A DNA stretch of 60,000 bases from Lytechinus pictus (lineage: Eukaryota): the NCBI RefSeq assembly GCF_037042905.1, contig NC_087245.1:9426001-9486000 (forward strand), written 5' to 3'. The position numbers were made by a program, and so were the translations under genes. Of this stretch, positions 27,001 to 59,200 are shown piece by piece; the stretch's first letter is position 1, and every line of letters starts with the position of its first letter. The notes beneath the pieces were generated by a model. It had not been told where the DNA came from. It did no database searches and saw only the letters and a program-made list of their open reading frames with translations.

Positions 27001-30000
27001 AAAAACCAAAAAAAAAACAGATTAACTAGATTATTTTAATTATCAATGCCTAGTGCGCCTAGCGATTAGTTTGGAAACTCTTGCTAGAATACTCCTCAGG
27101 ACGTGGAGAAAGTGCAAACATTCTGTGTGGGTAAGCTAGAATCCAATCAACCAAGATAATAATACACCTATAAAATGCTTAGAAATGTTCCTATGTGTGA
27201 AGTGCTAATAATGGAATGTAATTATCAGTACCCAATCAATGACATCTCAAATGAAAGTTTCATGGCCTTTTTTAATGTGATGAAAATGAAAAATATCATT
27301 GAAGTTTTATGACCAAGGACAACCAATTTTGATAAGATATGTATAGCCAGGGTAATAATAAAAATGTGCCTCGGAATAGATTGTTTCTAGATAGATGGCG
27401 CTATACAAATGCCTATCATCATCATCATCAATATTGATTGATTGATTGATTCAATTTTATTTCTGCACTCAGGCTACAAATATGCAACATAACATCTGGG
27501 TGGTACAATCAAGTTTTACAAAACAATTAAGCAATAGTCATAGTAAAGCAATGAAAAATAAATATTAACAATAAGCAATATTCAATGAAAAGAAAATAAC
27601 AGTTTAAACGAATGCAGGAGACCGCCATCGTGAGCGGTTAAGCTTGAAAATGATGGCGGCCTCGTAAAATGGTACATAAATGTCTTTCTTCATTGATCAA
27701 GTGGGTGCAATGCAGGTGCAGGTGCGGGTGAAGTAAAGGGCAGTTGAATAATTAACTTGAAGAGGGGGATGCATATGATTCGATGATTTTTCTTTTAATA
27801 GTGGCTTTAAGTGAGTATATTGTTGAACATGACTTAACGTTGTTTGAAAAATTGTTCCAAATATCAGGACCATAATGTCGAATTGATTTGTGAGTTATTA
27901 ATAATTTAGGGTTGGTGAGATGAAGGTTTCCTGATGTGCGGGTTGGGTAGGAATGAACAGACCTGTTAAACCTAAACATATCATTAAAGGATGGAGGAAG
28001 TTGATTATTAAAATATTTGAACATAAAGATGGCTACTTGGATCGTATTGATATCAAAGATTTTTAAGGTTTTAAGTTTATGAAACAATGGGTCAGAATGA
28101 GCCAAGTAATGTGACCGTGTGCACATACGGATTGCTCTTTTTTGTAGTTTAAAGACAGAGTTTAGTTTGAAAGAACCACAATTTGCCCAGACGATATTAC
28201 AATATGTTATATAAGGGAGGACTAATGAATTGTATAACAAGAATAAAGTTTTGTCAGGAAGAGTGAATTTTAACTTGGAAATTATCCCAATACTTTTAGA
28301 AACGGACATCGTAACATGGTGTATGTGTTGATTCCAAGTCAAAGATTCGTCCATAATTACACCTAAAAATTTAGATTGTTTTTTCTGTTCTAGGGGGGTG
28401 CCGTCAATGTTAATGTCAATCGGTGTGTTAATGTTATGGGAATGGTGTCTGAAATACATAAAATGTGTCTTTTTTGTATTAAGGGATAGTTTATTGGCTT
28501 TGAACCAGTTTGATACTTTATCAATTTCACGATTTACGATATTGGTTAATGAATTAAGGTCTCTATGAGAATAAAATATATTTGTGTCGTCGGCAAATAA
28601 AACGAAGGATAAAATAGAGGAGGTTGTAATAATGTCGTTAATGTAGAGTAAAAATAAAAGTGGGCCTAAAATGGAACCTTGAGGGACACCACATCGAACT
28701 AAAAGAGAATCAGAGTCGTAACTGTTAAAATTGACATATTGCCTTCGATTATTTAAGTAGTCTTTAAAAAATGAGAGACATTGACCTCGTATTCCATAAT
28801 GGTTGAGTTTGGATAGTAAAATTTCATGGTTGAGGGTGTCAAACGCTTTACTAAGATCGCAAAAAATGCCAATTACGTGTTCTTTGTTCGCTATGGCATT
28901 TGTTATTTTGTCATAAATTTGAAGTAATGCTAAGTCTGTTGAATATTTTTTTCTAAAACCATATTGATTACAATTTAGAATGTTATATTTGTTTATGAAT
29001 TTATAAAGTCTTGTGTAAACTATTTTTTCTAGAATTTTAGATATTGTTGGAAGTAAGGAAATGGGACGGTAATTACTTATTTCGTGAGGGTTGTCTTTTT
29101 TAAAAATCGGATTTACTTTTGCTATTTTGAATAAGTCTGGAAAAACACCTTGAGATAGGGAGTTATTAAATATGTGAGTCAAAGGGCTGGCAAGAGGGTG
29201 AATTATTTGCTTAAGAAGAGACATGTTAATGCCATCGCAACCAGAAGATCTAGAATTATGAAGGGAACGAACAATAGTGATTATTTCGGAGGGGTTTGTT
29301 GGGGCTAAAAAAAGAGATTCTTGATTTGGATCTGAGAGGTAATCTGTAAAATGTGCGTTGGGACTATTAATTTTGTTTGCAAGCTCGGGCCCAATATTGG
29401 TAAAGAAAGAATTAAATGAGTTTGCATAATTAGTGGGATCAAGTATTTCAGATCCATTGAGAGTGATTTTATCATTAGGTGGGGGGTGTGTTTTTGTACC
29501 CAACACTTCTTTGATAATTTTCCAAGTCGTATTTGTATTACCATTGGCATCGTTAATTTTATTAGCAAAGTGCAATTTTCGGGATATTCGAATTAATTTT
29601 GTTAGTTTATTACGATATATTTTATATTCTTTTAAAGAATCATCAGTTGGATTGCGTAAGTGATATTTATATAGGCGATTACGTGTCTGTATGGACTTCA
29701 GTAAACCTTTAGTTATCCAAGGATTTTTGGGTTTGTTACGTTGGTTTTTTACTTTACCTATAGGGATATTCTTTTCATAATAATGTTTTAATGTATTATT
29801 GAAGTTATTGTATGCAATATTGGGATTTACTTCATTATAAACATCATCCCATTCTTCCAAAACTAGGTCTTGCTTCAGTAATTCTATATTTTGTTTAGAT
29901 TCTTTACGATAAGTATATTCTTTGTTTGATTTGGGGAAAGAAAGTTTACATTCACAAGTTAAGAAAATAGGCAGGTGGTCCGAAACTTCTGAACATAAAA

Positions 30001-33000
30001 TCCCTCCTGTGGCTTTGTTATTATGAACATTCGAAAATATGTTATCAATCTGAGTTGATGAATTCAAGTTAATCCTTGTGGGTTTATTAATGATAGAAAT
30101 AAAGCCAAACGAATATATCAATTTCATGAAATTGGATGAATTATTAATGTCAGATGAGGGCAAGAAGTTAATATTAAAATCACCGAGCAAAAAAAAATGT
30201 TTGTTTTCATTCCCTATTTCATGAAGAAAATATTCTAGTTCATCGTGAAAACGATCGATATTTGTATCAGGGGGTCTATAAATTAATCCTATGATGATAT
30301 TTTTGGAATTAGAATTTTCAATCTCTATAAACAATGACTCTGCATGCAATAATTTAACATCAGATCGAATCTTAAATTTGAGATTTTGTGAAATGTAAAA
30401 AGCAACTCCTCCTCCTCTTCTTCCCTTACGGTCCGCCCTTATTAATTTATAATTAGGTATATTAAACATGTCAGGAGAATTTTCATGTAGCCATGTTTCG
30501 CTTAAACCGATGACTGAAAACTGAAAGTTATTTAATGAGTGTAAGAGGTTAACTAAATATTCAAAGTTGCTATTTAGACTTCTTATGTTTGCATGTAAAA
30601 GGGATAGATTATCTGGAGTAAAATTAAATTCGTTGTTGAATTCTTGGGGAGTGTAATATTTGCTATCTTGCGGGTTCTCAATGAAAATATCTGGAGTAAA
30701 AGTATGTGACTCAAACAGGGGGACGTAAAAATGTAAAGTACCGGAGGTTTGGAGAGAGGTCAACTGCAATTGTGCAAGTGGTGCATGTGCGTGGGTGTGT
30801 GTGTACAGGTGTATTCATGTGTGAAAGTGGTGCTAGTGTATCAACAATAAAAACATAATATATGAATGCAAAAAAAGTAAGACCCATCTTGGTCAATGAT
30901 GGCTGGGCAGCAGAGCAGAGCTCGACCACCCTAAAAATACAATGGATAAGGCAATTTCAGCAAATAAAAACTTAGAGTTTACTACGAGGGGATTGGAAGA
31001 AGACAATATTTACAAAAAAGAACAATGAATCAACAAGATTGAGTCAATACTATAGATTTCTAAGCATGTAACAAAAAGATTCTTACATAATCTACATTGA
31101 ATCAATACATTGAAATCGCATTACACACTTTTCAGTCTGGAAAATACCGAGAATGGTCTACATCAAAGGGAGTATTTTTTTTCTCCTAGAAATCTGTTGC
31201 CGTGAGGAATAAATAAAAGAGGGAGACTGGAAATGAGCTTTGAATTAATTTGGAAGTATATAGAGAGTTCAAGAATGCACTACAAGCCCACTATTCACAG
31301 TTTAATAATATAGTAATGGATCTCTTTTCTGACAAACCGATTAAAATATTTGAGTAGTCAAAGAATAAGATGGGAACTAATTAGGGCCTTTTCTAAGTTG
31401 TACAAAGAGATTAAGCAGTTGGGGCCAAAAGAATGGGCGTATACGGCATAGTGATTGATTGAAAAAGTGGCAGGAAAAAACACTAGTGATTTCAAAATAC
31501 AAGACCAACACAATATAATGGATCCATCATGTGGCTGAAAAGACAAGACCAAAAACTAGTATACATTCTTGTGTATTAAGCATAACCAAGCATAATCAAC
31601 ACAATCAGGAATGATTTACTTAAAGGTAAATTGTGTCCCCCCCCCTCTCTCTCTCTTCCCTATTCTTCTTTTTACAAACGATTTAAAGGCTGTTGTTTTG
31701 ATCAATGACCGTCCAAAAGTAAATTTTATGAACAAAACAGCCGGATATCTACGTTGAAGTATGCATTCTTATACACGTGAATGTACAAAAACTATAGATA
31801 GAATTTTGTATACAGGTTGTTGCTGCTTTATAAAAAGAAATATATATTGTATGTCATGACTTGCCGCTGTGGAGAGAGAGAGAGAGAAGGGGAGGGGGGT
31901 GGTAATACTGATTGGTGCAGAGCAGGAGCGTTTGGTTCACTCATGCTATTCATCGACCAATAAAATTCATGAACAATGTTATAGGCGGGAAATGACCAGT
32001 GGTGCATAAAATCCACGCCCTGTTTGGCGAGACCTGTGGATATGGGCAAACGAATGAAGTGAATAAAAGAAGCTATATAATCGCTTTCTTACTTGACAAG
32101 TTGTTTAAAATATTTGGAAAAGTTAAGGAATGAATCGTATTATTAAGTTAGGACTCTGCTTATTTGAATAAGATTAAGCCGTTGCCAAACAAAGGGTATT
32201 GCCTTTTGGAATGAATCATAAAATTGGCGGGAAAAAATCTCTATAGAGAAGTAATTTAAATACATGTCAAGGACGAGATTAAATATAATGGTTACTTCAT
32301 GTACCTGAAGAGAATGTCACTGACATCAATATACACTCTATAGTCATGTGAGAGGGTGGACCCCCTCTCTCTCTCCCTCCCTTTACAATTGGCTCAAAGA
32401 ATGATCGTTAAACAACATTTGCATTAATCAATTCAGGTCTGTTGATAAAAGATAAAGGGATACTGATTTTGAACTAAGTGCAGATTATTGCTTCTTTACC
32501 AAATAATGTATTAATTACGTAATGAGATGTCATTAAATAGGCTGAGAGAGAGGGAGGGGGGGGGGTTGCATAGGCCAAAGCAGATTGCTTATTATGGTCA
32601 GTGCATAATGTTCTCTCATGCTCAATCGACCAATAATATTAATGAACAACGTGAAAGGCGGGAAATGACCATCGGTGCATAAAGGCCACGCCAAAGGGCC
32701 ACGCCTTATTGGGTGAAACCTGTGGATGTGGCATGCAAATTTAACTCCAACAATGCGTGTACAATAAGCAAAATCTTTAACAGTGTAACAATATGTCAAT
32801 TCAATAGTAATCTTTGTTGACGAACCGTTTAAAATATTTTATAAGTATAAGGTGAACACATGAGAAGCCCAGTAAATAATCTTTTAACAAAATGTATAAA
32901 TATTTTGGAAAGTCAAAGAATGAAATTGTGTCGGAATTTAGGACTGTACTTAATTGGATTAAGCCGTTGCCACATAAAGAGGTAAGCGTATAGGAATGAA

Positions 33001-49820: not shown

Positions 49821-50025
49821 ATTCCACCGACACATAGGTTTACCTAATCAAAACCTTGTCTACCCCGTTCTCTTCTCTCTGAATTTTCTCCTTTCTTTAG
49901 ATTTCCTATTTCTCTGTGTCCCTTTATTTATTCCTTTCTTTCTTCCTTCCTTCTTCTCTGTATTTTTTCTTTCATTTTTTTAAATATTTTTTTTCTTTCT
50001 ATTCTTTCCCATATCCTCTCCCCAC

Positions 50026-50195
50026 TGGGCGTTGTGGCGTGCGCCTGTAATCCAAGCTGTGGGGAAGTTACAAATTGATGCAGAGGTTCGAGCCCTGGTC
50101 ACGTCTTTCGGATGGTGACGTTAAAGGTCGGTCCAAGACGTAAATAATCATATATGATTGGTACACGTCTGACAAAACTCAAATACACACACACA
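50026..50195 (+). mobile_element. SINE with 7SL(Alu-domain)-like head, B-box, Meta-like core and (CA)n tail
   Basis: TGGGCGTTGTGGCGTGCGCCTGTAATCCAAGCT; GGTTCGAGCC; GTCTTTCGGATGGTGACGTTAAA; 10-bp TSD CTCTCCCCAC (50016-50025, 50196-50205). Confidence 0.8.
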
Positions 50196-50913
50196 CTCTC
50201 CCCACAATTTTTCTTCATGTTTCAGATCAGTATACCAAAAAATTGAGCTCGCACTTCGCGCTCGCATTATGTATTAAGATACACAGCTTGTACCACTGGC
50301 GGATCCAGGGTGCAAAGCCGGCCGTGCCCCCCTTTTGAGTGGCACAATTAAAATGTGTAATGTAAATTGCCGTTAAAACAGAAGTGTGCCCCCACCCCTT
50401 TGAAAGTGAAGACCTTTTTTTTTTGGGGGGGGGGAGTTGTCAATTTTTTTTTTGAACGAAATTATTGTGGGTTAAAAACCTTTTTTTCTTGCTTGTCATT
50501 TTTTTCTTGGACGAAATAACCTGAATTTTTGGTTAAAACCCTATTTTGACGAAACGAAATATCCTTAATTTTGGGTCAAAAACCTTTTTTTTTGCTTGTC
50601 AAATTTTTCCTCGGCAAATTGTGCCCCCCCCCCCCCCTTTGCTTGTCCAATTACATATGCGGAATCTAAGTTTATATATATATATACATATATATACATA
50701 TATAAAAAAGAAATAGTCTGCTTCGGCATATGGAATAAAGTAATCACAAAAGGTTTAGTAAATGCCGTGGAAATAAGATTGTAGATTTTAAAAGGAGCAT
50801 AGCTCTCAAAAATGAAAGGTAAAGTCACACTCTTCATCAGTGCCCATGATGTGACAAAAATAAAAAGAATTCAAAATCCGTTTCTGAAACAGTCGTGAAA
50901 AACACGTCTGTTC

Positions 50914-52606: not shown

Positions 52607-55333
52607 ACAGCTCGCGCTTCGCGCTCGCATTCTTGTTTGATTAGATTACCATCTTATTCATCATTGCAAAAAGTGTTCAGTGTTAAAGTGTAAAATAAAA
52701 AACCAAAGATCGCGCTCGCAACAATTTCTTAGTTCCATGCCCACCCTCTTCGTGGTTACATTACTTCGAATGTCCTGTTTATAGTTCTAAATCTGTTTTA
52801 AAAATATCAGCGCGCGCTTCGCGCTCGCTCTATTTGATTAGTGAGAAATGTACTCTACACACGAGTCACTGCAAACAGTCATTAACAGGTCCTCTTTCAG
52901 CTCGCGCTCGCATGAAGTACTTAGTTATATATACTGTGTGAGTCGGAAATTAAAATTGTCAGCTAATCCTTTTCATGGTTAGGCCTACAATCGAGTTTTC
53001 TGGTCTTGATATATTAATTTCTCAGCTTGCGCTTCACGCTCGCATTTGTAGATTGGTGAGATATGTATTCTATTCATGGATCATCGCAAACACTCTTTAA
53101 CAGGTCTTTTTGCAGGCCAGTTTATCTTGTTTCTAAGAATGAAAATTTTGTTATGACTAACCCCTAACATTAAAAAAAAAATCGGATGCTGGGGGCAGCG
53201 ACGGGGAAATTTTGAAAATGTGAATGAACGTATCCCCCCCCCCCCATTGATGAAAGCTGGAGCTACCCCTGAATATGACAGAAAATGTGACTTAGGAGTA
53301 TAAGAATCTCCAAAATGACTTACGGCCCGGTAATCAGGGCCTCCAGCCCCCCCCCCCCCCCCCCCCCGCACACACACACATACTAACTGAAAAAGGCCTA
53401 GTGACGCCCTCCATCCCCATTTATTCGCCAGTGCCGGGAAGGATTAAAATTATGAAAATGATTATGCCATGTATAATATAATAAAACATTCAACGATTAT
53501 TCTATTTCATCCTGGACCTTTATTTTGTGTCTTTCTCCGTCCACCTTTTCTAAAAGTTTCTGAAAGGAATGGCTTCACCAAAATAAACAACAGAAAATCA
53601 TGCGGGGAAAAAAAATCGATGGCAATCATGCGGATAATACGATAATCATCACTATCATCGTGATTATCATCATCATCTTCTATATACTGAAATACTCCCT
53701 TGCTTATACTTGTCATATGATTCATCGTAAATAATAAAATTTTCTACCGTATATCTGTACATTGGGGGTGATAATCAGGCCATCCCTATATACCCAAAAT
53801 ATTGGGGAGGATATCCCACATTCTCCCCCCCCCCCCCCTGAATCGTCACCCTTGCACTCGATCCTGTTCCCATTATACTATAGAGCCTGGGAGTACATGA
53901 TGAATTAAACTTACATGATAAACTCGCCTATTATTTTGTCCACTATCCTCCTCAAATTACTAAATTAGCTCAAAGATATAGGTCTATTGAAGCTAATTTT
54001 GGAAATATTCAACAAACCTTTATTGACATTTCGAAAAAGCATCTTGAAGATGTAAAAGGCATAACCAGGCAATATAGTCTACAACTTTGGTTGACAAATA
54101 CATGGGGAGCGGAAAGGTTTGGCGGGGGGCGGGGGTCAGCACCCTATACCTTTCGGTAATCGAGTTAAAAAAAACATGAGATTGACCTTCAGATTGTGAT
54201 TATTTATGCGTATTCTGCCCACCCCTCCCCCTTTGTCTCATTTTGTGCCCCCCCCCCCCCCCATTTTCAAACTCGTTTCACTGCCCCTGATACAAACAAA
54301 CAAGTCTTTATACACAGAATTAAAAGGAATCTTCGACATGCGTTTATCGTAAATAAACTGATAGGGGCGCCTGGAGGCGGGGCAGGGCTGGATGCAGTTA
54401 CCCTTGGCTATCAAAGGGGGGGGGGCAAAACGCACCTCATAAATAGATAGAAAGAGGCGAAGAAGAAAATTAGAAGCAAACGAAGGAAAGACGCGGAAAC
54501 ATTCTCCTAGAAACGCTCATGTATTTGGTTAAGTAATTTTAGTGAAATTTGATAAGCAAAAAAATGGAAGTTTAGAAGAAAAAAAACCACACTGTACCTT
54601 TCCCGCTATCAATAATGGATGCAGCCATGTAGAAAAAAATTGCATAAACTATATTTTAGAATCATTGGAATGACAACCCCACCCTTTTACGCATATAATT
54701 AAAATACAATACACATTTGTCGTTTCTAGTTTGGCCTTTTCACGTAAAGTTTCTTACATCGGAAAGCTGCAATAATTAATGCTACGTGTCAAATGAAAAT
54801 TGAAATAATATCAATCGTGTATACATACAGTATATATAATGTATTCTTTTTCTTCTTCCTAGCCCCTTTTTTTTCGAGGGAGAAAATGTATTACGGTGCG
54901 TTTGACGCCCGCTTTTTTAGAGGCGGTGACTTCCCCTTGAGCTCTCGAAGTTCCAAAAGCCACATGGCTGTTATCATTTTTAATTGTTTGCTTCTGTGTT
55001 GACTCAGCATTCGTTTCATTTATCAAACCAATTAGATTTTAATCACTGATCTTCTTTTGAAAGAATTATTATAATGAACTTCCTCTTTCTCTGTATATAC
55101 AAAGACAACTCGTTGTCATTAGTTAGTTAATTTTTAATGAATTCGTTTACATGTTTCTTCTCAATCTGATAGTCTACTTAGTCTTGAGGACTTGAGGTGA
55201 CTTCCATCAATATATCAAACGAAATGTTGCTCCTCTAGTCGAGCCTGCTAACATTTTCAAGTTCTCCGTGTGAAAACTTAGGTGTTTCCTGTCATTGTAT
55301 GCATAACGGGGCAGGAAGGCAAGACTGAATAAA

Positions 55334-56758
55334 ATGTTGATCATGAACAACTCTTCGCCCAGAACAAATAATCATAGTGATAATGGTTTTGTGCTTGAAA
55401 GCTATCCCCAGCGAATCATCATCGCTTGCATCCACTGCATCATCATCGTTGTCGGCATCATTGGGAACAGCCATGTGGTACTTGCTGTGCTGCTCTGCCG
55501 AAAGCTGAGGTCATCCACCAACTGGCTTGTTGTCAATCTCGGAATGGCCGATCTCCTAAACTGTCTTTTCCTTCCTTTCAATGTCGTAGCATTACTTAGC
55601 AAGGATGGGTGGCCCATCGGTGAATGGATCTGTGCAATGACAGGAGTCGTCACGATGACCTGTCTAGGAGCTAGCATCGTCAGTCTTGCTCTCATTGCAC
55701 ACAATAGATTGACTCTCCTCACCAAGCCTAGGTTCACATTCTACCGCTTCTACTCTAATCGTAACCTGACTGTGATGGTGATTTTATCATGGCTCTACCC
55801 GCTGTTGCTTGTCATAATCCCACCGATAGCAGGACTCGGAATGTTAGGATATTCGGAAAACTACAAGGTATGTCTGCAGGATACCACCTTGCCAAACTCA
55901 GATTATTACAGTCTTATTGCCGGGGTGGGTGTCATCGTTCCTGCATCCATCATCATAGTAATCATCTACGTACTCATATATCGATATGTTTCGCGCCATA
56001 ATAAGGCTTTTGAGAGAAGATTGGCCGAATCGAGCAAAGCTGGAAGTTCTAAATTTACTCGAACCAGTCTTGATATGAGTACCAATTGGACAGAATCCAG
56101 GGATCATCAGCAAACGAACGAAGACGTGGCTGGCAGTTCGAAGCTAAACTGTCAGATATTTGGCAATGCTGGGAACGGCAGCACATTCGCGGCTACTTCT
56201 CATATCAACAACCAAAATGATACATCAAACCTGTCAAGTACAGGAAACCTGACAGAAAGTAATGATGCCGAAAGACAAAACAATCCATCGGACAACCCAT
56301 GTAAAACTAATGAAGATGAAATAGAAAGTAAAGTTAAATCCCAAGCTGAAGATATAGAATCAACGTCAGACGATCGTATCAGCCAGGCTAACCTCGAAAA
56401 TAAAGAATCGTCAAATCCTAGAAGGGATATCCAAACACCCAAAAGAACTGATGATCTAAAACCTTCGCCTAAAATTTCGCGCCACAACATTAACGTCACC
56501 AAACGTCTGTTCCTGGTGGTCATTTCTTTCTTCCTATGTTTTCTTCCATTTGGGATCTGTGTGATGGTGCCTACCAGTGATCCAGCGGTTCCATGGGCTA
56601 ACCTTCTGATGATGCTCAACAGTTGCATCAACCCTATCCTCTATGCTGGTACTATGCCGATGTTCCGGAAGGTAATGTGGTGTATAGCTCGATGTCGATA
56701 CCACAGTATTCCGGAGGGGGTCGATTTGATACGCTTTTGCCGTAGGCATCAATTGTAA
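55334..56758 (+). CDS. Intronless rhodopsin-like (class A) orphan GPCR, 474 aa, with long third intracellular loop
   Basis: TM1 GIIGN, TM2 NLGMADLL, ECL1 W..GEWIC, TM3 IAHNRL (DRY position), TM4 W..P, TM5 P..I...Y..IY, TM6 FFLCFLPF, TM7 NSCINPILY; N-terminal N-glycosylation sequons. Confidence 0.93.
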   Translation: MLIMNNSSPRTNNHSDNGFVLESYPQRIIIACIHCIIIVVGIIGNSHVVLAVLLCRKLRSSTNWLVVNLGMADLLNCLFLPFNVVALLSKDGWPIGEWICAMTGVVTMTCLGASIVSLALIAHNRLTLLTKPRFTFYRFYSNRNLTVMVILSWLYPLLLVIIPPIAGLGMLGYSENYKVCLQDTTLPNSDYYSLIAGVGVIVPASIIIVIIYVLIYRYVSRHNKAFERRLAESSKAGSSKFTRTSLDMSTNWTESRDHQQTNEDVAGSSKLNCQIFGNAGNGSTFAATSHINNQNDTSNLSSTGNLTESNDAERQNNPSDNPCKTNEDEIESKVKSQAEDIESTSDDRISQANLENKESSNPRRDIQTPKRTDDLKPSPKISRHNINVTKRLFLVVISFFLCFLPFGICVMVPTSDPAVPWANLLMMLNSCINPILYAGTMPMFRKVMWCIARCRYHSIPEGVDLIRFCRRHQL

Positions 56759-57278: not shown

Positions 57279-59200
57279 GGACAATTACCCCCTGAGGACA
57301 ACTATCCCTACTATTGTATTTGCAAACCTCTTTCGCATATATTCAATCTATCATTTACTACAGGCATTTTTCCAGATAAATTATAAGTTGCAAGAGTTAT
57401 ACCAGTTTTCAAAAAGGGAGATAAAGATTTACCTGGAAATTATCGATTTTACCCGCGATTAGCAAAATATTTGAAAAACTAGTGAATGCACGATTGATGA
57501 AATTAATAGAAAAGAATGAAATATTGTATAAACACCAATATGGTTTTAGAAATGGATACAGTACGAAACTTTCACTGATAAATCTGATTAATCAAATTAC
57601 AAGATATACCGATGAGGGAAAGGTGACAGTAGGAATATTCATCGATTTTGCTAAAGCTTTTGATACGATTAATCATTCTATTCTCATTAAGAAACTAGAA
57701 CACTATGGCATTCGTGGTAAGGCAGTAGAATGGTTTAATGATTATTTACGAAACAGAAAGCAATTTGTTAATTAAGATGGTGTAAATTCCGAATACAGGT
57801 CGATTTCATGCGGTATTCCACAAGGATCAGTTTTGGGTCCAACTTTGTTCTTGTTGTATATAAACGATCTGGCAAACTCATCAAATTATTTCAATTTCCG
57901 TCTTTTTGCGGATGACTCAAATTTATTTCATACTTTCAATTGTGATGAACAACATATTGATTTATCAGAAAGTAGTCTCAATTTAAACAATATAATAGCA
58001 TGGTGCAATGCCAACAAATTGACAATCAATGTTACGAAAACTAAATATATGTTGTTTAAAAATAGACGAAAAAATATTTTGATATCAGGACAATTGTCAC
58101 TGAAAGGAACGTTATTAGAGTGTGTTGAATCAACATTATTTCTTGGTATATGTATCGACAAAAACCTTACATGGAAGAAACAGGTTGACATTGTCTGCAA
58201 TGTGCTAAGCACAAAAATTGGAATACTTTATAGATTGAGGAACTATGTAACAAAGAGAATCTTAGTTATGTTATACAACTCATTTATTTTACCACATATA
58301 ACGTATGGTCTGGAAGTATGGGGTGGGACGTGCAAAACAACACTGAACCCTATATTATAACTTCAAAAACGAATAGCTAGAATAATGACGTTCAACCATC
58401 ATACTTATCACTCTGCTCCTTTTTTTTATGATCTAAATATTCTCGATATTTTCAAACAATACCAATATTTGATAGGAGTATTTATGCATGATTTGATTAA
58501 TAATCGGTTGCCGCATTGTTTTATTGATTATTTTTCATTTATAGACCATCCTTACAATACAAGAAATAGAGAACAGCGATATGTTAATCTTGACAAAAAT
58601 AATACCAATTTGGGAAAACAATCAATTTCATTTCCTGGTCCTACTTTATGGAATCATCTGCCAAGTAATATTAGAAACACCCCCAGTCGTAAGATATTTA
58701 GCAAATCGTTAAAATTAATGCTACTGGAAGATTATAATTAATTTGGTATGGTAAACTGCCGGATTTTGTGAATAAGTAAGATATTTTTTTCTTTTAAATA
58801 GTGTAAATATGTTCACTGAAAATGCCCGAAATTTTCTGCAACAATAATTAGTAGAATTAGTATTGAATTTGATGTACAATATTGAGATTTAGTTAAATTT
58901 ATTGTTTAAACTATGATAATGACATTATTTGGGGCTAACCTCGTTTAGCATTTTGCTATTATGTTAGCTCCAATTACCAAATGTTTTGTTTATATGTGAT
59001 GTACTATTCCTTGTAATTGTACCTGACAGTGATATTTGGTAATAAATTCAATTCAATTCAATCCCCAATGACAATTACCCCCCCCTGGACAACTATACCT
59101 CCAAGGACAATGACCCCAGACAATAACCCCCAAACAATCACCTCTGAGGATATAGGCCTATGCCCCATGATAATTACCCCTGAAAATTACCCCCCCCCCC
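57279..59200 (+). repeat. GACAATTACCCC-type degenerate short tandem repeat, split by the LINE
   Basis: Units at 57279-57308 and 59061-59200. Confidence 0.6.
57309..59060 (+). mobile_element. 5'-truncated, disrupted CR1/L2-group LINE (RT C-terminal half)
   Basis: QYGFR, DFAKAFD, PQGSVLGP.LF..YIND, FADD, FLGI; in-frame stops at ~57773 and ~58358 plus a small deletion. 3' hairpin 58931-58971, AATAAA + (TTCAA)n tail, possible TSD ATCCC (57304-57308, 59061-59065). Confidence 0.9.

Follow-up and report, generated by a model that had tools for sequence, protein, structure and literature searches.

A sea urchin SINE family whose head derives from the 5′ end of 7SL RNA

Introduction

The described range of SINEs derived from 7SL RNA is narrow. 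In Kosushkin 2026 (PMC13023118), such elements are stated to occur only in supraprimates, hagfish and now the shrew mole, all of them having arisen via a central deletion of about 183 nt. Alu/FLAM, B1 and Tu of supraprimates and Urop of the shrew mole have the 5′ end of 7SL, box A, the UGUAAU motif, a high copy number and recent activity (PMC13023118), and the sea urchin SINE described here resembles them in these respects. Alu, B1, Tu and Urop keep both 7SL ends, require no more than a poly(A) tail and use L1 (PMC13023118), whereas the urchin SINE is devoid of the 3′ 7SL part and has a tRNA-type box B outside 7SL, a structured tail and a (CA)n end.

The hagfish family, SINE1-1_EBu (Ebu1-1) of Eptatretus burgeri, was called the first outside Euarchontoglires (Kojima 2020, PMC7245038). 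Like the urchin SINE, it is chimeric, has a head from the 7SL RNA of its own host and was born independently of Alu; both families are joined to older SINE or LINE material, are young and number around 10^3 copies (2363 in hagfish), and both have a microsatellite at the end and apparently rely on a LINE other than L1 (PMC7245038). The two differ in the amount of 7SL retained: Ebu1-1 keeps 96 nt of the 5′ part together with the 3′ end, from which a whole Alu domain is possible, in contrast to the 45 nt of the urchin SINE (PMC7245038). Moreover, the body and tail of Ebu1-1 derive from RTE and its partner has been identified, whereas the body of the urchin SINE contains a Deu-like fragment and its partner was not found by exact patterns. 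The hosts differ as well, the urchin being an invertebrate and Ebu1-1 belonging to a hagfish.

Other SINEs are relevant to the body of the element. The Deu domain measures 330 bp in vertebrates, is represented elsewhere by its Nin part of about 120 bp and is 70 bp long in BivaDeu-SINE1; it follows a tRNA or 5S head (PMC4824008). MetaSINEs are recognised by a 66-bp Meta-domain placed directly after a tRNA head, and the sea urchin families SINE2-1, -2, -3 and -6_SP have been described as tRNA-headed (PMC4824008). The DeuSINEs AmnSINE1, EbuSINE1, SINE2-3_SP and a family that we found in the urchin genome (L073-L078, see below) have in common with the urchin SINE the motif that starts the Deu domain, CGTC..TCGGAT..GACGTTAAA..GTCCC. 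Whereas the heads of DeuSINEs come from tRNA or 5S and are accompanied by 70-330 bp of the domain (PMC4824008), the urchin SINE combines a 7SL head with about 37 nt of it.

The 7SL part present in the urchin SINE has an experimental counterpart in human cells. Moldovan 2025 (PMC12199147) reports that SRP9/14 is bound by a 46-nt 5′ Alu domain, with which retrotransposition reaches about 86% of that of Alu; a 39-nt version fails. This minimal domain, SA46, covers the same part of 7SL as the urchin head (46 versus 45 nt); it is an engineered human construct that, on its own, binds SRP9/14 and supports retrotransposition in HeLa cells with L1.

Here we describe a locus in a 60,000-nucleotide stretch of Lytechinus pictus DNA, hereafter the window, to which all positions refer unless a contig is named. 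We conclude with considerable confidence that 50024-50195 is one insertion of a LINE-dependent mosaic SINE, composed of a 7SL head, a linker, a box B, the start of a Deu domain, a stem-loop and (CA)n (Table 1).

Results

Boundaries of the insertion

The stretch is present in 22 sequencing runs, in all of them as contigs. The SINE copy is 172 nt long (50024-50195) and is flanked on both sides by CTCTCCCCAC; directly after the left CTCTCCCCAC the sequence reads TGGGCGTTGTGG, and its start, more fully quoted, is TGGGCGTTGTGGCG. As a control for flank matching, the 5′ flank of each of 28 copies was paired with the 3′ flanks of all the others. Among these 756 mismatched pairings, the longest match was 9 bp, and matches of at least 7 bp made up 0.13%. 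The 10-bp match at the window copy is beyond chance.

Table 1. Features of the SINE insertion and of its immediate flanks in the window
Feature	Position	Strand	Basis
Left target-site duplication, CTCTCCCCAC; final AC possibly the first 2 bases of the element	50016..50025	.	10-bp exact match
Head, copy of the 5′ 45 nt of host 7SL RNA (helices 2, 3 and 4 of the Alu domain)	50024..50068	+	Rfam; alignment to host 7SL
Putative promoter element TGGCGTGCGCC, about where box A of 7SL/Alu sits	50035..50045	+	Read from the sequence
TGTAAT, single-stranded UGUAAU between helices 3 and 4	50046..50051	+	Rfam alignment columns identical to the model consensus
Linker TACAAATTGATGCAGA	50069..50084	+	No similarity to the remaining 7SL
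Pol III box-B consensus GGTTCGAGCCC, outside the 7SL-derived part	50085..50095	+	Sequence; kept in old copies
Core similar to the ~37 nt at the start of the Deu (Nin) SINE domain	50098..50134	+	By-eye comparison with printed alignments
Tail stem-loop, AGACGT...ACGTCT enclosing TAATCA...TGATTG	50136..50170	+	Folding
3′ terminal GACAAAACTCAAATA and (CA)n microsatellite	50171..50195	+	Same end in 30/30 best copies, CA length varying
Right target-site duplication, CTCTCCCCAC	50196..50205	.	Exact repeat of the left flank
Run of TTTTT in the 3′ flank, at which Pol III may stop on this copy	50208..50212	+	Presence of the run; function putative

The perfect 10-bp target-site duplication of the original prediction is thus present as a repeat, but the start given with it, 50026, lies 2 nt too late. 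The 5′ end is most likely at 50024, because AC precedes TGGGCG or TAGGCG in 22 of the 30 best copies, because all seven host 7SL genes begin with ACC or ACT, and because the Rfam match begins at this position. With such a start, the duplication consists of 8 bp plus 2 nt that can be assigned to either the target or the element. At the other end, the predicted (CA)n tail was recovered, its CA run ending at 50195. An exact duplication of at least 7 bp was observed in 7/28 copies, flank identity amounting to only 2-6 bp in the other 21; in one copy (L016), a 15-bp repeat is accompanied by 10 extra bases at the 5′ junction.

Further downstream in the window, 50290-50450 contains GGCGGATCCAGGG, followed by C-rich, poly-T and poly-G runs, and possibly represents another repeat family. 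Similar poly-T/poly-G runs occur downstream of the 7SL genes on contig C10.

Origin of the head

The head of the SINE is of 7SL origin, which bears out the 7SL/Alu-type head that had been proposed. At gathering thresholds, Rfam gave no match in the window; with E-value thresholds, the head (50024-50068) matched positions 1-44 of the Metazoa_SRP model with 31.2 bits (E 1.3e-6). Seven full-length 7SL genes, scoring 272-283 bits, are present in the host genome (812 Mb in 368 contigs). The first 30 nt of the SINE equal those of the host 7SL genes except at position 3, where the SINE agrees with a single variant 7SL gene (L037, contig C12); L037 and the SINE also have in common a paired change in helix 2, from ACC..GGT to ACT..AGT. 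When the young consensus was aligned with L037, 42 of 46 alignment columns were identical, with a score of 68 against 15.6 ± 2.3 (maximum 26) for 300 dinucleotide shuffles. Overall, the head scored 65-68 against host 7SL, and 300 shuffles scored 15-16 ± 2.4 with a maximum of 27. Furthermore, the head departs from the Rfam consensus exactly as the urchin's own 7SL does.

Since the element has a tRNA-type box B, one might suppose a tRNA-derived head, or else an unrelated sequence that looks like 7SL by chance, or contamination with human Alu. We consider these origins extremely improbable. ARAGORN detected no tRNA in the window and no tRNA family was among the five Rfam matches listed up to E 10, so that a tRNA fitting the head better than 7SL, the case raised against the original prediction, did not emerge from either program. 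The departures from the Rfam consensus that the head and the urchin gene have in common argue against all three origins, and the copies lying on many chromosome-size contigs among echinoid genes argue against Alu contamination. The window also contains a single-exon gene for a rhodopsin-type receptor (55307-56758, + strand). Compared over 55337-56755, its product shows 95% identity to a Lytechinus variegatus protein whose annotation is muscarinic M4-like and 65% identity to a Strongylocentrotus purpuratus protein, all named matches being from echinoderms; this puts the host among sea urchins close to Lytechinus. An invertebrate host free of human contamination, as had been assumed, is in line with the echinoid flanking genes, the copies on many contigs and the correspondence of the head to host 7SL.

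Having its origin in host 7SL, the head stops at a defined point: the likeness ends as soon as the 3′ strand of helix 2 is complete, at the closure of the 5′ Alu domain. The SINE from position 48 to its end, aligned with 7SL from position 48 to its end, scored 13-15 against 15-16 for shuffles, and 169 to 281 of 300 shuffles scored as high. The element therefore holds a complete 5′ Alu domain and no other 7SL part. A derivation of the body from 7SL was rejected, as the local alignments of SINE positions 46-125 and 48-end to the remaining 7SL gave scores at the shuffle mean. With alignments at this level past position 48, the SINE is chimeric, as predicted, its 7SL head being joined to a non-7SL body. 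The Alu-like build that had been proposed is retained for the 5′ 7SL domain and has to be given up for the architecture as a whole, the 3′ 7SL part being absent.

Two short motifs of the head deserve mention. The UGUAAU turn presumably has a role in SRP9/14 binding. For the putative promoter element, the point of reference is box A of human 7SL, located at positions 6-15 (Kojima 2020, PMC7245038).

Copy number and subfamilies

The insertion belongs to a young SINE family of roughly a thousand copies. A DNA search of the genome returned 1635 first-look candidates and 39 places with 98% identity to the window copy (40 scored). Within the 812 Mb, an exact 25-mer of the head occurred 833 times (414 forward and 419 reverse) and an exact 25-mer of the core 894 times (435 forward and 459 reverse), and the reversed-pattern controls for these head and core 25-mers gave 0 matches. 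The similarity of the two counts argues against another abundant family with this exact core. The matches, on both strands and on many contigs, substantiate the view that the window copy is a member of a family rather than a single copy. The insertions are dispersed, the family being spread over many contigs with some copies in tandem arrays.

On contig C1, 39 copies have both 25-mers intact. Their head-core spacing is 68 nt, the window type, in 7 cases, 70 nt in 12, 75 nt in 13, 77 nt in 4 and of other length in 3, indicating that several length subfamilies coexist. Divergence is low among the best 30 copies, which were picked for their likeness to the window copy: over 160 nt, 12 of them equal the consensus and 14 differ from it once, the window copy itself differing at 3 positions. 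At the other extreme, old copies down to about 75% identity still have a visible 7SL-type head. Older subfamilies keep GCTAC in the loop of helix 4, whereas the youngest is without the AC that these subfamilies and 7SL have; as a result, the contact between the loops of the Alu fold may be weaker.

We also weighed the possibility that there is no SINE family and that 7SL chimeric retrocopies arose repeatedly and independently, in the manner of U6-L1 chimeras, given that chimeric retrocopies are known to arise when a template switch leads onto a small RNA (Kojima 2020, PMC7245038). Independent chimeras would vary in their junction, yet the junction is identical in every copy examined. In addition, all of the best 30 copies have one 162-nt frame in common, and the two 25-mers recur in their hundreds at few fixed spacings. 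This makes repeated retrocopying very improbable, and we retain the reading of a single family.

Some copies are part of larger arrangements. Six SINE units, 82-98% identical to the window copy, stand head to tail at C18:3952127-3953141, much as in the tandem SINE arrays known from bivalves (PMC11481361). On C18, C5, C2 and C4 (L039-L042), segments that are 3 kb or more in length and 97% mutually identical carry one or two head-to-tail SINE copies each, and two places on C7 also belong with segments of this type. The presence of the SINE inside these 97%-identical segments implies that part of its spread took place inside a larger repeat or duplication that carried it along.

Linker and box B

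Older subfamilies have an extra GTTCGAG unit in the linker region before box B. The Pol III box B that had been predicted is in place (GGTTCGAGCC, 50085-50094), and box B is kept in the old diverged copies at L031, L035, L071 and L072 and in the second copy in L051, all of which had been found by criteria other than box B. The box A-like element and box B are about 40 nt apart, and there is no TTTT inside the consensus element.

A box-B-like sequence is also found next to the 7SL genes themselves. In six of the seven full-length genes (L031-L036; C10 and C1), GGTTCGAGTC(C/T) follows shortly after the T-run terminator; it is mostly succeeded by a GGTGTC-type motif and, in several cases, then by another T run. 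The variant gene L037 is without this downstream sequence, which could be a conserved extragenic Pol III element. Three of the genes (L031, L035 and L036) are tandemly duplicated at C10:7911947-7920824, each with an old SINE copy upstream. The old copies that end about 35 bp upstream of the C10 7SL gene starts are 80-88% identical to the young consensus, and at L031 a second SINE copy lies about 410 bp further upstream.

The occurrence of GGTTCGAGTC(C/T) downstream of the terminators would fit a scenario in which the linker and box B came from the 3′ flank of a 7SL gene, the SINE having begun as an internally deleted 7SL locus. In agreement with this, one flank aligned with the linker plus box B of an old subfamily at a score of 21, shuffles giving 14.3 ± 2.4 and 7/300 of them being as good. 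That score is nonetheless marginal, as it is the best of 10 comparisons and covers mostly the box B consensus itself, and the 7SL variant closest to the head, L037, is the very one without the downstream element. We regard such a beginning as improbable and retain the reading of a 7SL head joined to a body from outside 7SL.

Core and tail

The original prediction included a core with a Meta-like sequence. The quoted core, at 50103-50134, occurs once in the window and in 0 of 100 shuffles, and its presence thus stands. The likeness to Meta does not: compared by eye, the core bears no likeness to the printed Meta region of either BivaMeta-SINE1 or BivaMD-SINE1. Instead, by-eye comparison suggests a core resembling the start of the Deu (Nin) domain. 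With the part of BivaMD-SINE1 that comes after the Meta domain, as aligned in the supplement of Nishihara 2016 (PMC4824008), it has GTCACG, TCTTTCGGATGG, TTAAA and GGTCCC in common, in the same order (by eye). The printed "Deu domain" alignment in the supplement of Kojima 2020 (PMC7245038) opens with the same motif in EbuSINE1, SINE2-7_EBu and AmnSINE1_HS; against the last of these, about 28 of 37 positions match by eye.

The tail of the window copy folds into a two-tier stem-loop at -12.9 kcal/mol (z -2.46). For a consensus copy, the corresponding values are -13.0 kcal/mol and z -2.88, and 1 of 200 shuffles reached an equally good fold.

Searches for a partner LINE and a parent SINE

A comparison of the tail with LINE 3′ ends had been suggested as a way to the partner. 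With the SINE body excluded, three exact tail patterns of 22-27 nt matched 36, 11 and 2 times, and no LINE with the same end was found by them. Judged from the matched strings, the matches read as variants of the SINE or as short truncated copies preceded by unrelated bases, and the two oddest of the 36 are diverged SINE copies with 7SL-type heads.

Two LINEs lie within the window, and open reading frames of at least 180 aa in the examined DNA revealed no further LINE. One is an uninterrupted 1020-aa non-LTR retrotransposon frame on the minus strand (27752-30814) with a reverse-transcriptase motif of the FADD type (by pattern); its 3′ UTR ends in (AATC)n, the tail lying near 27440. The other is a LINE reverse transcriptase fragment on the plus strand (57776-58360) with a 3′ end of (AATTC)n near 59050. 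Both were rejected as the partner, since their tails differ from (CA)n.

A pattern for the same linker, box B and core, from which the base before box B was excluded, yielded 28 matches, among which there was no tRNA-headed relative: 23 have the 7SL head and 5 are 5′-truncated or rearranged. A gap variant of the core gave 0 matches, and a Deu-style pattern gave 1 match, equal to its control (1 match). With a different internal spacing, a Deu-motif pattern matched 254 times in the genome and its control 0 times. Six of the 254 matches (L073-L078) belong to a DeuSINE-type family of about 430 nt, which has a long Deu-like body and, unlike the (CA)n of the 7SL-headed SINE, a (CAT)n tail. Its head, complete in 4/6 copies, has tRNA-type A- and B-box sequences, ARAGORN calling no tRNA in it. 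The family is probably related to the sea urchin DeuSINE that the literature mentions. Its likeness to the 7SL-headed SINE is limited to the motif (20/24), in a comparison that is circular because the pattern selected for that motif; with similarity so limited, this DeuSINE was ruled out as the direct parent.

Discussion

The urchin element falls between the established classes. At 172 nt, interspersed and with at least 100 copies, it accords with the general SINEBase definition, and its 5′ end derives from 7SL RNA, as the SINE1 head does. SINEBase requires an overlap with 7SL of 60 nt or more at no less than 60% identity (PMC3531059); here, identity is about 91% and the overlap 45-47 nt. Nor are both 7SL ends kept, as they are in Alu, B1, Tu, Urop and Ebu1-1 after central deletion. 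The short overlap and the missing 3′ 7SL part argue that the element is not a plain SINE1 member. Full-text searches of the literature found no echinoderm or other invertebrate 7SL SINE, and the family could already be catalogued in a repeat database such as Repbase or Dfam, its 7SL head having passed unnoticed.

How could such a SINE be propagated? In our model, RNA polymerase III would transcribe it, with the 7SL part contributing box A and the body contributing box B. A LINE reverse transcriptase would then recognise the 3′ stem-loop and (CA)n, with insertion by target-primed reverse transcription. The chimera itself may have been born when a reverse transcriptase switched template from a Deu-type SINE RNA onto 7SL RNA, a route that has been proposed for other chimeric SINEs (PMC7245038; PMC4824008).

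The head might bind SRP9/14 and bring the SINE RNA to ribosomes making the LINE protein, as proposed for Alu. We see about even chances for docking of SRP9/14 by the head. That it could dock is suggested by the 45-nt head ending at the structural boundary of the 46-nt minimal domain, and doubt comes from the youngest subfamily, which is without two loop bases that 7SL keeps. The alternative, which concerns the role of the head alone, takes the element and its mobilisation to be the same and the 7SL piece to do no more than provide box A for Pol III and a stable leader at the 5′ end, having been captured by chance template switching and acting without SRP9/14. It is a credible reading that we hold at somewhat below even chances. 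Because box B lies outside the 7SL part, the head was perhaps kept as the supplier of box A; the subfamily that lost the two loop bases is not only the youngest but very successful; and SINE heads from 5S rRNA, snRNA and rRNA have been described as promoter donors (Kojima 2020, PMC7245038). Chance capture is harder to reconcile with a 7SL piece that ends exactly where the 5′ Alu domain closes, with a head length equal to that of the experimentally minimal 46-nt SRP9/14-binding domain (PMC12199147), and with the presence of the head in diverged old copies of about 75-80% identity.

Returning to the reading of the head as a docking device, we put forward a more general proposal tentatively, as possible but doubtful: the bare 45-nt 5′ Alu domain would be a portable ribosome-docking module, independently recruited by an echinoderm SINE to capture the protein of a non-L1 LINE with a structured tail. 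If this is true, the module would stand as a naturally occurring replicate of the minimal 46-nt domain that was established in human cells, and the family would be the first 7SL-derived SINE reported from an invertebrate, one without the 3′ half kept by all described 7SL SINEs.

The near-identical copies suggest that the family may still be active in a laboratory model group. The urchin family would extend the origin of 7SL SINEs to invertebrates, with a different architecture in which the 5′ domain alone is combined with a Deu-type core. It would also make a question testable, namely whether docking of SRP9/14 helps LINE parasitism in general or is a trick confined to L1.
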